This document shows positions 30,542 through 36,498 of a stretch of DNA of 64,000 bases, in pieces; positions within the stretch are counted from its first letter, which is position 1, and each line of letters begins with the position of its first letter. The notes under the pieces are model-generated. The model was not told where the DNA came from, searched no databases, and saw nothing but the letters and a program-made list of their open reading frames with translations. Made by a program: the position numbers and the translations under genes. Source of the stretch: Myxococcota bacterium (lineage in GTDB: Bacteria; Myxococcota_A; UBA9160; UBA6930); assembly GCA_965223415.1 (NCBI GenBank), contig OZ245002.1, positions 1,408,001 to 1,472,000 of the forward strand. Direction: 5' to 3'.

Positions 30542-31387
30542 TCAGCGGCCGGGCGGGTCGGACGACGTGTCGGGCCACTCGCCCCGGAACACCTCCACCG
30601 TCGGGCCGTCGAGCCAGGCCTCCTGGCCGGGGCCTTCCCAGGCCACGCGGAGCATGCCGCCCGGCAGCTCGATCTCCACCTCGGGACCCGTGCGTCCCGC
30701 CACCCGTGCGGCGACGGCGCAAGCCGTGCTGCCCGTGCCGGAGGACGGCGTCTCGCCCTCGCCGCGCTCGAACACGCGGGCGCGCAGGCGGCCTTCGTCC
30801 AGCACGTTCACCACCTCGAAGTTCACCTGGTCCGGGAAGCGCGGATGGGCCTGCACCTCGGGGCCGAGATCGGCCAGGGGAAGGTCGGCGACCGGGATGT
30901 CGGAGAGGTGCACCGCGTGGGGATTGCCGACGGAGAGGATCGTCACGGCGAGGGAGCCACTCGCGAGCGAGAGGGCCTCGTCGCCTTCGACCTCCGGCAC
31001 GCCCATCGCGACGCGACCCGCGCACACGACGCCGTCCTCGAAGCGGGGCCACACGACCCGAAGGCCCGCCTCGGTCTCGACCCGCAGGCCGCCGTCCGGG
31101 GCCGACGCCACGAGCTTGCGGTCGAGGACGAACTTGGCGAACAGGCGCACGCCGTTGCCGCTCATCTCCGCCTCGCTGCCGTCCGAGTTGAAGACGCGCA
31201 TGCGGATGGCGGCCTCGGCGATGCGCGGCGGCCGGGCCACCACCAGGCCGTCGGATCCCACGCCGGTGTGGGGGGCGGCCACGGCGCGGGCCAGCCGGGG
31301 CCAGTCGAAGTCCGGCGGTCGGGAGCGCCCGTCGACCGCCAGGTAGGCGTTTCCGGCGCCGTGGAGCTTCGCGAAGGGGATCGGCAC
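30542..31387 (-). CDS. dapF: Diaminopimelate epimerase family protein, Ser/Ser active-site variant
   Basis: KLHGAGN, GVGSDG, NSDGSEAEMSGNG, VGNPH, NFE, ERGEGETPSSGTG. Confidence 0.85.
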   Translation of the reverse strand: MPIPFAKLHGAGNAYLAVDGRSRPPDFDWPRLARAVAAPHTGVGSDGLVVARPPRIAEAAIRMRVFNSDGSEAEMSGNGVRLFAKFVLDRKLVASAPDGGLRVETEAGLRVVWPRFEDGVVCAGRVAMGVPEVEGDEALSLASGSLAVTILSVGNPHAVHLSDIPVADLPLADLGPEVQAHPRFPDQVNFEVVNVLDEGRLRARVFERGEGETPSSGTGSTACAVAARVAGRTGPEVEIELPGGMLRVAWEGPGQEAWLDGPTVEVFRGEWPDTSSDPPGR

Positions 31388-31422
31388 GGCGCGAGTCTAT
31401 CGTCTGGTAAGCTCGCGCGGCT

Positions 31423-32589
31423 TTGCCCCAGGACGTCCACAGGATCGAGAGCGACGGCCGCACGGTGATCGTGGTCGGCACCGCCCACATCTCCCGGGAA
31501 TCGGTCGAGCAGGTCCGGGAGACGATCGAACGGGAGGAGCCCGACCGGGTGTGCATCGAGCTGGACGAGCGTCGCTTCGAGGCGCTCTCGAAACCCCAGC
31601 GCTTCGACTCCCTCGACCTGAAGGAGATCATCCGCAGCCAGCAGCTCGCCACGCTGATGATGAACCTGCTGCTCTCGGCCTATCAACGGACGCTGGGCCT
31701 GCAGCTCGGCGTGAAGCCAGGCAGCGAGCTGCTCGAGGCCGCGGAGGTCGCGGCGGCCCAGGGCATCCCGATCGCATTGGTCGATCGGGACGTGCGCATC
31801 ACCTTGCGGCGGGCCTGGAAGGCGCTCTCCTGGTGGCACAAGGCCATGCTCCTCTCGTCGATCCTGGGCGGGCTGTTCGAGAAGCAGGAGCTCAGCGAGG
31901 ACGACCTGCGCGAGCTGCGCCAGGAGGACGTGCTCTCGCGCTTGATGGCGGAGCTGGGCGAGGCCTTCCCCGGCCTGAAGAGCGTGCTGATCGACGAGCG
32001 CGACGCCTACCTGGCCGAGCGCATCCGCCAGAGCGCGGGCGAGAAGGTGGTGGCGGTGGTGGGAGCGGGGCACGTCCAGGGCATGGTCGCGGCCCTGCGC
32101 TCCGAGACCCGTACGGATCTCGCGCAGCTCGAGGACGTGCCGCCCGCCTCCCAGGCCTGGAAGTGGGTGGGCTGGGGCATCCCGGCGGTGATCCTGAGCT
32201 CGATCCTCTTCATCGGCCTGCGCCAGGGCGCGGCGGCCGCCGGCGAGAACCTGCTCTTCTGGGTGCTCGCCAACGGCATCCCCGCCGCCGCCGGCGCCAT
32301 CGTCGCCTTGGGCCATCCGGCGACCATCGTCTCGGCCTTCTGCGCCGCGCCGGTCACGAGCCTCACCCCGGTGATCGGCGCGGGCTACGTCACGGCCTTC
32401 GTCCAGTCGTACTACAGGCCGCCCCTCGTCAAGGAGCTCTCCGGCGTCTGGGAAGATCTGGCCAGCGCCGGCGGCTGGTGGCGAAACCGCCTGCTGCGCA
32501 TCTTCCTCGTCTTCATCCTCACCACCCTCGGCAGCATCATCGGCACCTGGGTCGGAGGCGCCGAAATCGTCTCCAACCTGTTCCAGTAG
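31423..32589 (+). CDS. TraB/GumN family protein (TraB-domain membrane protein)
   Basis: VGTAHIS, CIELD, PGSEL, DRDVRITL, ERDAYL, VVGAGH; C-terminal TM helices. Confidence 0.92.
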   Translation: MPQDVHRIESDGRTVIVVGTAHISRESVEQVRETIEREEPDRVCIELDERRFEALSKPQRFDSLDLKEIIRSQQLATLMMNLLLSAYQRTLGLQLGVKPGSELLEAAEVAAAQGIPIALVDRDVRITLRRAWKALSWWHKAMLLSSILGGLFEKQELSEDDLRELRQEDVLSRLMAELGEAFPGLKSVLIDERDAYLAERIRQSAGEKVVAVVGAGHVQGMVAALRSETRTDLAQLEDVPPASQAWKWVGWGIPAVILSSILFIGLRQGAAAAGENLLFWVLANGIPAAAGAIVALGHPATIVSAFCAAPVTSLTPVIGAGYVTAFVQSYYRPPLVKELSGVWEDLASAGGWWRNRLLRIFLVFILTTLGSIIGTWVGGAEIVSNLFQ

Positions 32590-33215: not shown

Positions 33216-35201
33216 CTACCAGTGGGTTCCGGGAAGGAGGTGGGCGAAGGCCACCGCCTCCGTCGACGGCTCCTCCTCGCCGGGCAGGGTCTTCTTGCCC
33301 CGGGCGGCGCCGGACTCGGGCAGCAGCTTCCACGCCATGCTGGCGATGGTGTCGCTGTACCGGGGCGCGACCGCCGCGACCACCTGGGCGAAGGTGCCGG
33401 CCTTGGTCGCGACCTTTTTCGGGCGGTCGACGATCGCGTCGCAGATGAGCTGCCCCGCCTCCTCCGCGCTGATCGTCGGGAAACGCTGGTAGATCTTGGT
33501 CGGCGCGATCATCTCCGTGCGGACGAGGGGCATGGCGACGGACGTGAAGGCGATGTTCTCGTCGAGGAACTCCGGCGCCGCGCAGCGGCAGAAGGCGTCG
33601 AGCGCCGCCTTCGACGCCACGTAGGCCCCGAAGCGCGGCGGATGGGTTTGCACGCCCATGCTCGAGATGTTGATCACGTGCCCGCCCCGCTGGGCCTGCA
33701 TGCCGGGCAGAAAGCCCATGATCAGCTTCACCGCACCGAAGTAGTTGAGCTGCATGGTGCGCTCGAAGTCGTGGAAGCGATCGTAGGTGAGCTGGACGGA
33801 GCGGCGGATCGAGCGCCCTGCGTTGTTCACGAGGACGTCGATGCCCCCGTGCTGGGCCTTCACCTCCTCGACCAGCGCCTCGCAGCTGGCCAGGTCCGAG
33901 AGGTCGGCGGTGTGGGCATAGGCGGTGCCCCCCGCCTTCTCGACCTCGTTCTTCACCTCCGTGAGCTTCTCGGCGCTGCGTGCGACCAGCAGCACGGTTC
34001 CGCCGGCGGCTCCGATCTGGATCGCCGCCGCCTTCCCGATGCCCGCCGAGGCGCCGGTGATCAGCACGCGCTTGCCGCGAACCGCCGCCTCGAGTGAGCG
34101 CTCCCGGAAGAGATCCGGATCGAGGTTGCGCTCCCAGTAGTCCCACACCTTGTCGGCGTAGCTGTCGAGGGACGGCACCTCGATGCCCGAGCCTTCCAGG
34201 GCCGCCGTGGCCTCGCGGCAATCGAGGCGCGGCAGGTTCATCACCCCGAGGACGCGACTCGGGATGCCGATGTCCTCGAGGGTCTGCTCCATCAGGCGAC
34301 GGATCGGCGGCAGCTCCGCCACGGCGTTCCGGAGGCTCTTCGGAATCGCACCGGCGACATTCTTCCCCTCGATGCGAAGGGCGAACTCCGGCGCATGGGC
34401 GGCCTTCGCGAAGGCATTCAGCATGTCGCCCTGGCTGGTCGGCTCCGGGTCGACGAGGTGGAAGACCTTGCCGTCGAGCCCGTCCTCGTGGCCGATGTGG
34501 TCGACGGCTCGTGCCACGAAGTCGACGGGCACCACGTGAGAGGGCCCGCCCTCGATGCCGATCATCGGCATCCACGGAGGCAGTGCGCCGCGCAGCTTCT
34601 GGATCAGCTTGAAGACGTAGTAGGGCCCGTCGATCTTGTCGATCTCGCCGGTCTCGGAATGACCGACCACCATGCCCGGCCGGTAGACCCGCCAGGGCCG
34701 CGTGCAGCCCTGCTGCACCATGCGCTCGGATTCGTGCTTGGTGCGGAAGTAGGGATCGTCGAGGCCCTCTGCCTCTTCGAGCATGTCCTCGCGGAAGATG
34801 CCCGGGTAGAGGCCGGCGACCGCGATCGAGCTCACGTGGTGGAAGACGCGCGCCTGCATGGCCTCCGCCAGGTCGAGCGCGTTGCGCGTGCCCTCCAGGT
34901 TGGCCCGGCGCAGCTCGGCCTCGTCGGCCGCCATGTCGTAGAGGGCGGCCACGTGGAAGAAATCCGCTCCGCGAAGCTCGGCCAGGGCCTCGTCGCCCAC
35001 GCCGAGCCGGGGCGCGAGCAGATCGCCTTCGACGGGCACCACGCGCTCCTTCGCCGCGGAGCCCCAGCGCTGCAGCAAGCCCTCGAGCTTCTCCTGCGAG
35101 CCCGCACGCACGAGCACGTGGATCCTCCCCTCGCGGCGTAGGAGCAGCTCGACCAGGTGGCGACCGATGAAGCCGGTGGATCCGGTCACGAAGTAGGGCA
35201 T
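33216..35201 (-). CDS. Two-domain SDR, fatty acyl-CoA reductase-like (AcrA1-like)
   Basis: N-terminal TGSTGFIG extended SDR; C-terminal TGASAGIG, NNAG, YVASK. Confidence 0.9.
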   Translation of the reverse strand: MPYFVTGSTGFIGRHLVELLLRREGRIHVLVRAGSQEKLEGLLQRWGSAAKERVVPVEGDLLAPRLGVGDEALAELRGADFFHVAALYDMAADEAELRRANLEGTRNALDLAEAMQARVFHHVSSIAVAGLYPGIFREDMLEEAEGLDDPYFRTKHESERMVQQGCTRPWRVYRPGMVVGHSETGEIDKIDGPYYVFKLIQKLRGALPPWMPMIGIEGGPSHVVPVDFVARAVDHIGHEDGLDGKVFHLVDPEPTSQGDMLNAFAKAAHAPEFALRIEGKNVAGAIPKSLRNAVAELPPIRRLMEQTLEDIGIPSRVLGVMNLPRLDCREATAALEGSGIEVPSLDSYADKVWDYWERNLDPDLFRERSLEAAVRGKRVLITGASAGIGKAAAIQIGAAGGTVLLVARSAEKLTEVKNEVEKAGGTAYAHTADLSDLASCEALVEEVKAQHGGIDVLVNNAGRSIRRSVQLTYDRFHDFERTMQLNYFGAVKLIMGFLPGMQAQRGGHVINISSMGVQTHPPRFGAYVASKAALDAFCRCAAPEFLDENIAFTSVAMPLVRTEMIAPTKIYQRFPTISAEEAGQLICDAIVDRPKKVATKAGTFAQVVAAVAPRYSDTIASMAWKLLPESGAARGKKTLPGEEEPSTEAVAFAHLLPGTHW

Positions 35202-35286
35202 GGGGGGTCCTTTCGGATCGGAGGGAGGAACGGTCCCCAGCTTGCGCCGATAGGGCAGGGGAATGCAAGCGCCGGCGTCCCCCCGC

Positions 35287-36498
35287 TCAGGACTCCCGGC
35301 GGAAGCGCCACGCCAGCGCCACGTAGGCGAGCACACCCGGCAGGCAGGCCGCGATCATGGCGGCGCGCACGTCCAGCAGCTGGAAGAGCGGCCCGACGAG
35401 CACGTAGCCCAGGGCGAGTCCCCCGCTCGAGAGGGTGGTGCGCAGGGCGAACACCTTGCCGATCTGGTCCGCCGGGAAATCGCGTTGGACCATCATCAGG
35501 ATGGGCACATCGGTGATCGGGCCGCCGATGGCCGGGAGCATCATCAGCAGCAGCGCGGCTTCGAAGGAGGGCGCGAGGGCGACCGCCACGAAGCCCGTGG
35601 TGAAGATCAGACCGCCGACGCCCATCACCAACGCGCGCCGGGCGATCGGACGATAGGCGAGCACCAGGTTCGAGAGCACGTTCGAGACGCCGTAGGCGCT
35701 GAACAGGTAGCCGTAGGCATCGGCCTCCCGTTCGAAGGCGCGGTCGACGAGGAGGGCGAGGCCGATGATGGCCCCCGTCCACGCCAGGTTCGACAGCAGC
35801 AGGGCCGGGAGGCCCCAGCGCAGGCCGTCGTGGGCCCAGGTGAGGCGCGCAGCGCCGACGATGTCCGACCACACGCCGCGAAGGTCGCGCAGGCCGCGAA
35901 CCGGGTCGGGCATCGGTGCGTCGTGGCTTCGCGCTGCGAGGCCGCGCCCGATCGCGAGGATCGCCGCCGCCGAAGCTGCGAACGTCAGCACGTTCAGGCT
36001 GAAGAACTGGGCGATCGGTATCAGCCCGAGCAGCAGGCCGGTGAGGCCCGGCCCGACGACCATCGACAGCCGCCGCGTCATGTTCAGCAGCGCGTTCGCA
36101 CGCTGGAGACGCTCCGCATCGGGGGCGAGCACCGGCAGGCCGGTCTGGAGCGCCGGCTGGAAGAGCGAGTCGAGGGCACCGAGCACCGCGGCCACCGCCG
36201 CCAGGTGCCAGAGCGAGATGTCACCCAGCCAGGCCGCCACGGGCAGGGTCGCCACCGCGGCGGCGCGGATCAGATCGCTCGCGACGAGCGTGCGCCGACG
36301 GTTCCAGCGATCCGCGAGCACCCCGGCGACGAGGCCGAAGCCGAGTCGGAAGGCAGCGCCGACGGAGACGACCCACGCGGCGTAGCCCCCGACCTCCTGG
36401 GTCGCGATCCAGACCACGGCCACCTGGTGGAGCTGGTCTCCGACGGCAGAGAGCAGCTGCCCCCACCAGAGGAGGGGGAGCCAACGGCGCGAGGTCAT
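35287..36498 (-). CDS. MFS transporter
   Basis: GVLADRWNRR motif A; ~12 TM segments. Confidence 0.9.
   Translation of the reverse strand: MTSRRWLPLLWWGQLLSAVGDQLHQVAVVWIATQEVGGYAAWVVSVGAAFRLGFGLVAGVLADRWNRRRTLVASDLIRAAAVATLPVAAWLGDISLWHLAAVAAVLGALDSLFQPALQTGLPVLAPDAERLQRANALLNMTRRLSMVVGPGLTGLLLGLIPIAQFFSLNVLTFAASAAAILAIGRGLAARSHDAPMPDPVRGLRDLRGVWSDIVGAARLTWAHDGLRWGLPALLLSNLAWTGAIIGLALLVDRAFEREADAYGYLFSAYGVSNVLSNLVLAYRPIARRALVMGVGGLIFTTGFVAVALAPSFEAALLLMMLPAIGGPITDVPILMMVQRDFPADQIGKVFALRTTLSSGGLALGYVLVGPLFQLLDVRAAMIAACLPGVLAYVALAWRFRRES

Follow-up and report, generated by a model that had tools for sequence, protein, structure and literature searches.

A second diaminopimelate epimerase homolog with serines at both catalytic positions in a Myxococcota genome

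The window (a stretch of 64,000 nucleotides from contig OZ245002.1 of the Myxococcota bacterium assembly GCA_965223415.1) encodes a homolog of diaminopimelate (DAP) epimerase, DapF, in which serines occupy both catalytic positions (Table 1). The serine codons noticed in the first-pass annotation, AGC within EMSGNG and TCC within TPSSGTG, lie exactly where it had placed them, and in HMMER alignments with the solved DapF structures 5ha4, 8qzy and 6d13, Ser76 falls opposite the cysteine of 'eqCGNG' and Ser216 opposite the cysteine of 'etlaCGTG' or 'etqaCGTG'. The Cys/Cys acid-base pair is absent from this protein, with Ser76 and Ser216 at the two sites, which we take to correspond to the first and the second catalytic cysteine (Cys73 and Cys217 in the numbering of Haemophilus influenzae DapF, respectively). 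Amino acid epimerases that need no cofactor are the textbook case of catalysis by two thiols, and they are targets of antibiotics.

None of the neighboring genes has a visible link to DAP, lysine or cell-wall synthesis. The gene is flanked by a divergent TraB/PrgY family gene and by convergent genes, including one of the Glyoxalase_3 family; synteny with the TraB and Glyoxalase_3 neighbors (clusters 29 and 35) extends to 7 and 6 loci, respectively, in Myxococcota-labelled relatives. The layout of the large fusion protein encoded further away is presumably that of fatty acyl reductases. Because only 35 bases separate the starts of dapF and of the TraB/PrgY family gene, either one of the two starts is miscalled or the promoters of both genes must extend into coding sequence. 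The promoter and terminator scan was uninformative, with a single promoter-like site, located within the TraB gene, and no terminator.

Table 1. Features of the window and of the related loci discussed in the text (coordinates without a genome or locus label are those of the window)
Feature	Location	Strand	Details	Basis
Ser/Ser DapF paralog, CDS	30542..31387	-	281 aa; GTG start at 31387, stop codon 30544-30542	ORF list and translation
Codon 76, AGC (Ser76)	31160..31162	-	within E-M-S-G-N-G	sequence and alignment to solved DapFs
Codon 216, TCC (Ser216)	30740..30742	-	within E-T-P-S-S-G-T-G	sequence and alignment to solved DapFs
Glyoxalase_3, GNAT and zinc-ribbon genes			downstream of dapF, convergent	
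Spacer between dapF and TraB/PrgY starts	31388-31422		35 bases	
TraB/PrgY family gene	31423-32589	+	TTG start; divergent, 35 bases from dapF	
Promoter-like site	31686-31657	-	within the TraB gene	promoter/terminator scan
PspC, DUF1330 and reductase-SDR fusion genes			further neighbors in the window	
Reductase-SDR fusion	33216-35336	-	706 aa; 'male sterility'-type NAD-binding reductase (PF07993) and short-chain dehydrogenase (PF00106)	
Cys/Cys dapF of the same genome (G000)	C1:1977356-1978174	+	EMCANG, ETLACGSG	
dapA of the same genome (G000)	C1:1978213-1979061		begins after 39 bases	
Aminotransferase of the same genome (G000)	C1:5599602-5600756		outside the window	
Gene row around Ser/Ser dapF (L024)	L024:1291-11697		tsaC-like, polyprenyl synthase, pgk, tpiA, miaA, dapF (Ser/Ser), dapL, hflX, S41 peptidase, smpB	
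Other Ser/Ser paralog (L092)	G050:C13:31000-33000		EKSGNG, ASGSSS	
Other Ser/Ser paralog (L094)	G112:C33:239500-241300		EKSGNG, ASGSSS	
Stop-bearing DapF match	G192:C1:2315392-2316237			
Stop-bearing DapF match	G127:C29:123904-124743			
Stop-bearing DapF match	G178:C52:3761-4597			

The assignment of the protein to the DapF family is clear. Over its whole length, it scores 201.9 bits against the NCBIfam equivalog TIGR00652 (cut-off 114.65) and, in two stretches, 143.9 bits against the Pfam DAP_epimerase family (PF01678; cut-off 34.7). A phmmer search of the PDB sequences retrieved 17 distinct chains at E <=0.001, of which 16 are named diaminopimelate epimerase and one is an O-ureidoserine racemase (7vdy); none of these 17 is a natural Ser/Ser DapF. 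The AlphaFold2 model (80-row alignment; mean pLDDT 96.0, pTM 0.91) predicts the two pseudo-symmetric alpha/beta domains of the DapF fold, with two central helices that would point toward the active site; Ser76 directly precedes helix 77-89 and Ser216 directly precedes helix 217-229 in this model. The top Foldseek matches in the PDB are DapF structures (TM 0.80-0.88, 31-37% identity, E-values down to 2.9e-31).

The substrate-binding motifs described as intact in the first-pass annotation are all present, namely G12-N13, N67-S-D-G-S71, N155-P-H157, N189-x-E191 and E207-R208-G209. We compared 133 Cys/Cys rows with 202 Ser/Ser rows, the latter taken from the homolog search, the scan of related loci and the full HMMER search and possibly with some proteins represented twice. 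In each of the two sets, at least 85% of the rows agree on G12, N13, G47, N67, D69, G70, S71, G77, N78, N155, P156, H157, N189, E207, R208, G209 and G217. In H. influenzae numbering, we take Asn11, Asn64, Asn157, Asn190, Glu208 and Arg209 to be the residues that bind the ends of DAP; their counterparts (N13, N67, N155, N189, E207 and R208) are kept in the window protein and in both sets. Ser76 and Ser216 are invariant across the 202 Ser/Ser rows. Compared to the Cys/Cys consensus, the Ser/Ser proteins have L82 for the second cysteine of CGNGxRC, F190 for Val, F206 for Trp, S215 for Ala, S220 for Ala, T221 for Cys and L8 for Met, as well as P114. These co-varying second-shell changes would agree with the published view that such enzymes have tuned the environment of their catalytic residues, and such tuning may apply to the present clade. 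Gly47 was considered as an oddity of the window protein and dismissed given that this residue is normal in Anabaena and Arabidopsis DapF (PMC12039745, in the portion available); in particular, the structure 9MRO belongs to the Cys/Cys enzyme of Anabaena, and Gly47 is the norm for that type.

The 5.83-Mb genome that contains the window (G000) matches TIGR00652 in two places, the window gene (201.5 bits) and a second, higher-scoring gene (291.5 bits) that is located immediately upstream of dapA (355.5 bits) and encodes a Cys/Cys DapF. On visual inspection, this gene seems to be preceded by an argininosuccinate-lyase-like ORF and dapA to be followed by a dapB-like one. The search for another Cys/Cys dapF that the first-pass annotation had proposed thus yields a canonical copy directly upstream of dapA, which makes the window gene dispensable on paper. 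The same genome also encodes an aminotransferase that scores 448.9 bits against NF006756, below the cut-off of 507.

Within the phylum of the window, copies with at least 75% identity to the window protein were found in 2 of the 121 sampled genomes (G000 and G072), both of the same genus, and the remaining three genomes sampled from the family have one DapF match each, in the canonical range. A second DapF match accompanies the Ser/Ser protein in all four examined carriers outside the Chloroflexota, that is, these two genomes, a Myxococcota chromosome (G004) and Entotheonella TSY1 (G005). Where its motifs were read (G000, G004 and G005), the second DapF is of the Cys/Cys form, with one protein of each form encoded in G004 and in G005, and the second match of G072 has 43% identity; in G004, the Cys/Cys dapF abuts dapA as it does in the genome of the window. 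A different Ser/Ser paralog, with the motifs EKSGNG and ASGSSS, is present as a second copy in relatives of the window genome (L092 and L094), and the same lineage is also the only DapF match in two genomes of the class of G001, a complete Dehalococcoidia chromosome (L133 and L134).

The serine pair is stable among the relatives of the window protein. A homolog search detected 2071 proteins at E <=1e-10 among 8000 scored candidates, and the query together with the 120 listed homologs (52-100% identity) have Ser/Ser in 121 of 121 cases. The same state was found in all 81 loci compiled in a scan of one genome per species (the window and the best 80 of 481 relatives). The codons for these serines turn over synonymously: across the 81 loci, the first site is encoded by AGC (67), AGT (13) and TCC (1), the last of these in L016, where the codon changed family from AGY to TCC, and the second site by TCC (31), TCG (20), TCA (15) and TCT (15). 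The dN/dS values (Nei-Gojobori) of the window gene against its closest orthologs L090, L003 and L004 are 0.24, 0.16 and 0.25, respectively, and those among these orthologs are 0.10-0.14; values of 0.3-0.5 obtained for distant pairs are unreliable because dS is near 1, that is, near saturation, and GC3 is extreme.

The claim in the first-pass annotation that the serines are under selection therefore stands on conservation of the pair, on synonymous turnover and on dN/dS of 0.16-0.25, but its argument from two different serine codon families does not, because one base change is enough to turn TGC into either AGC or TCC and two codon families by themselves are no proof of selection. That annotation had also named relaxed selection and lack of activity in the homologs, combined with a canonical dapF elsewhere, as the outcome that would speak against it; the canonical gene is indeed there, whereas the dN/dS values point away from relaxation. 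These observations bear on the possibility that the window gene is a redundant copy drifting to loss, in which the serines would be persisting inactivating mutations. Such a fate would be compatible with the existence of the canonical copy and with the occurrence of a window-like copy in just 2 of the 121 sampled genomes of the phylum, but it is highly unlikely considering that the ORF is intact, that purifying selection is apparent both for the window gene and among its close orthologs, that the serine pair is fixed in the 81 loci over several phyla, and that the TraB and Glyoxalase_3 synteny is common to related loci.

An indication of function comes from the orthologs in Chloroflexota. Of the 81 loci, a total that counts the window, 63 have the Ser/Ser dapF within a conserved co-directional gene row, all of these labelled Chloroflexota, Dehalococcoidia or SAR202, and in these 63 loci the gene that follows dapF falls into a single conserved cluster. 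The single member of this cluster that was scanned, in L024, is an LL-DAP aminotransferase (dapL; 556.7 bits against NF006756, cut-off 507). In the row, annotated on this one member, the dapF-dapL lysine-pathway pair is set among housekeeping genes. In each of the three complete Dehalococcoidia chromosomes tested (G001-G003), the Ser/Ser gene is the sole match to TIGR00652, and these chromosomes also encode LysA (452-467 bits, cut-off 297.9) and DapA (293-303 bits, cut-off 206.15); meso-DAP dehydrogenase was not found in any of the five genomes searched for it. LysA needs meso-DAP and LL-DAP aminotransferase makes LL-DAP, so an epimerase is required in these three organisms, and the Ser/Ser protein that adjoins dapL is the only candidate seen for this role. 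Taken together, the sole DapF located next to dapL, the presence of lysA and dapA and the failure to detect a DAP dehydrogenase imply that the Ser/Ser form is most likely a working epimerase.

DapF enzymes with two catalytic serines were described by Lamer, van Belkum, Chen et al. (J Mol Biol 437(21):169375, 2025), as cited in PMC13728532, of which a part was available; the surmise of the first-pass annotation that such variants may already be reported was correct. According to the same part of PMC13728532, Anabaena sp. YBS01 encodes one Cys/Cys and one Ser/Ser DapF, replacement of the serines by cysteines inactivates the Ser/Ser enzyme, and the physiological relevance of Ser/Ser DapFs awaits validation. 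Because Ser/Ser DapFs have been reported, the Cys/Cys pair no longer defines the DapF family.

A natural concern is that the window protein could bind DAP with little or no catalytic activity and be kept for DAP sensing, for binding a partner or for a similar non-catalytic task. Single Cys-to-Ser mutants of this enzyme class show hindered or slowed catalysis (PMC11602996 and PMC12039745, in the sections available), the canonical dapF already covers the step in G000, the neighbors of the window gene are unrelated to lysine synthesis, and Escherichia coli DapF activates RppH independently of catalysis (available part of PMC13728532), so that moonlighting of this kind needs no active enzyme. However, we consider an inert protein unlikely: three complete chromosomes have a member of the clade as their sole DapF, alongside dapL, dapA and lysA, and a DAP dehydrogenase was not found in them; Ser/Ser DapFs are reported to use their serines catalytically (PMC13728532, same part); and both serines are invariant in 202 rows, which mere binding would not require.

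Another option is an epimerase or racemase that acts on something other than DAP, for instance lanthionine or a further amino acid of the diamino or basic type. DapF-fold enzymes with other substrates do exist (HisR/CntK, DcsC and PddB; PMC11602996 and PMC8225329, in the parts consulted), and the racemase 7vdy is among the PDB matches of the window protein; DapFs of the Gly47 type tolerate lanthionine (PMC12039745, likewise in part); and the window gene is a stand-alone second copy. Nevertheless, a change of substrate appears quite unlikely, given that the residues binding both ends of DAP are all kept, that the TIGR00652 score is above the DapF equivalog cut-off, and that the orthologs adjoin a gene of the cluster in which the one scanned member is dapL and have no second DapF match beside them in the three chromosomes tested.

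We return to the reading of the window gene as an epimerase, which the first-pass annotation had offered, as possibly oxidation-resistant, next to an altered activity, and which gains support from the kept DAP-binding residues and from the dapL-adjacent, sole-DapF context in Dehalococcoidia. The gene would encode an active LL-/meso-diaminopimelate epimerase that belongs to the natural Ser/Ser type, has the ordinary two-domain DapF fold and DAP pocket, and would serve as a second isozyme beside the canonical Cys/Cys enzyme encoded directly upstream of dapA. Judging from the sequence data, activity is the most likely state both for the Ser/Ser clade and for the window copy, and we consider it probable that the latter is an active Ser/Ser diaminopimelate epimerase maintained as a second isozyme next to the canonical one. 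A special role as a thiol-free isozyme, immune to shut-off by disulfide formation, is a suggestion adopted from print.

The Ser/Ser state is by no means general in the class of G001. Among the 81 genomes sampled from this class, 72 have a DapF match and nine do not; 69 regions were read, those of the Ser/Ser genome G001 itself not being among them, and comprise 54 Cys/Cys, 5 Ser/Ser, 4 Ser/Cys and 3 Cys/Ser forms, one doubtful regular-expression reading ('AC') and two regions with no motif found. The idea that the whole class is Ser/Ser was discarded in view of the 54 Cys/Cys regions; because most of the sampled genomes are Cys/Cys, the serine pair is a property of lineages rather than a class-wide necessity. 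Each of the mixed forms, Ser/Cys in L113, L143, L149 and L152 and Cys/Ser in L115, L117 and L120, is the only DapF match of the respective Dehalococcoidia-class genome, and these proteins resemble extant intermediates on the way from one state to the other. A full HMMER search gave 17,530 matches at E <=0.001, and the best 150 cluster representatives were classified as Cys/Cys (137), Ser/Ser (6), Ser/Cys (3), Cys/Ser (3) and cut off (1).

Two other features of this class can be mentioned here. The sole Cys/Cys DapF matches of three Dehalococcoidia-class genomes contain one or two in-frame stops (TAA or TAG) and may be broken genes or assembly errors (Table 1). A link between the serine pair and aerobic life was not supported: in the class sample, all 6 Ser/Ser genomes and 35 of the 54 Cys/Cys genomes have the haem-copper oxidase gene COX1 (Fisher p = 0.16, with related genomes that are not independent), as do 3 of 3 Cys/Ser and 2 of 4 Ser/Cys genomes.

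Phylogenetic analysis of the homologs, which the first-pass annotation had proposed, places the window protein in a well-supported Ser/Ser clade. In the FastTree phylogeny of 224 rows, 84 of the 85 Ser/Ser rows, the window protein and the Chloroflexota members included, form one clade with support of 100. In a second tree (IQ-TREE in quick mode, LG+G4, 97 rows), the main Ser/Ser clade consists of 29 rows, again with the Chloroflexota members (support 97), and is nested among Cys/Cys and Ser/Cys DapFs of Dehalococcoidia, with the Dehalococcoidia Ser/Cys protein of L143 as its sister (support 91). Inside the main clade, nine Ser/Ser rows of the Myxococcota type, the window protein among them, group together at 97. 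The EKSGNG lineage is a clade of its own (support 99). The starred branches imply at least three origins of the Ser/Ser state, namely the main clade, the EKSGNG clade and a protein from one alphaproteobacterial MAG. A starred branch of the free tree separates the window protein from the Cys/Cys DapF of its own genome. However, when the nine myxococcotal Ser/Ser rows were held together with the two myxococcotal Cys/Cys rows, a group chosen after the tree had been seen, the AU test did not reject this topology (lnL lower by 31.5, p-AU 0.272), and because the joint myxococcotal grouping was left unrejected, horizontal transfer is not claimed over an old duplication.

A more specific evolutionary scenario can be offered tentatively, although we regard it as possible rather than probable. 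The Ser/Ser clade of the window might represent a separate origin of the serine pair inside the Dehalococcoidia DapF radiation, via Ser/Cys intermediates that are extant as sole DapFs; it might then have spread to a Myxococcota lineage as well as Entotheonella and been kept there beside the thiol enzyme as an oxidation-proof isozyme, with the changes C82L, V190F, W206F, A215S, A220S and C221T perhaps enabling catalysis by serine.

A natural serine pair in an enzyme with the task of an epimerase is chemically surprising, yet such enzymes were published in 2025, and the window gene is a further example of the natural Ser/Ser DapFs in print since then and no new kind of enzyme. What the present analysis adds is one more lineage in which Ser/Ser and Cys/Cys DapFs occur side by side; a large Ser/Ser clade that spans Myxococcota, Entotheonella and Dehalococcoidia/SAR202 and accounts for the single DapF of each of the three complete chromosomes tested; and a list of co-varying residues along with natural Ser/Cys and Cys/Ser forms, which could guide mechanistic work. 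As for annotation, the name diaminopimelate epimerase may stay, and pipelines that call the gene inactive for its missing cysteines would err.

Compared to known systems, the window protein is closest in kind to the natural Ser/Ser DapFs (Lamer et al., 2025, through the part of PMC13728532 available), with which it shares the DapF fold and serines at both catalytic positions of an otherwise intact DapF, and Anabaena sp. YBS01 resembles the genome of the window in the coexistence of a Ser/Ser and a Cys/Cys DapF. In contrast to those published proteins, as far as the same excerpts describe them, the nearest loci of the window are from Myxococcota-labelled MAGs, and its Ser/Ser clade is common to Myxococcota, Dehalococcoidia/SAR202 and Entotheonella. 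With at least three Ser/Ser origins in the tree, the clade of the window and the assayed Anabaena Ser/Ser enzyme are likened here by their catalytic residues and not by shared origin. The Cys/Cys DapF encoded in the same genome belongs to the same family and presumably catalyzes the same reaction, but differs in its catalytic pair, in its location next to dapA and in its position on the other side of the starred branch, with 42% identity to the window protein. Finally, the canonical Cys/Cys DapFs (EC 5.1.1.7; 5ha4, 8qzy, 4ijz, 9mro, 3ejx and 1gqz) share with the window protein 31-37% identity, TM of 0.80-0.86, identical DAP-binding residues and the location of the catalytic pair at helix N-termini, whereas the window protein differs from them in the replacement of both cysteines by serine and in the clade-specific changes around these residues.
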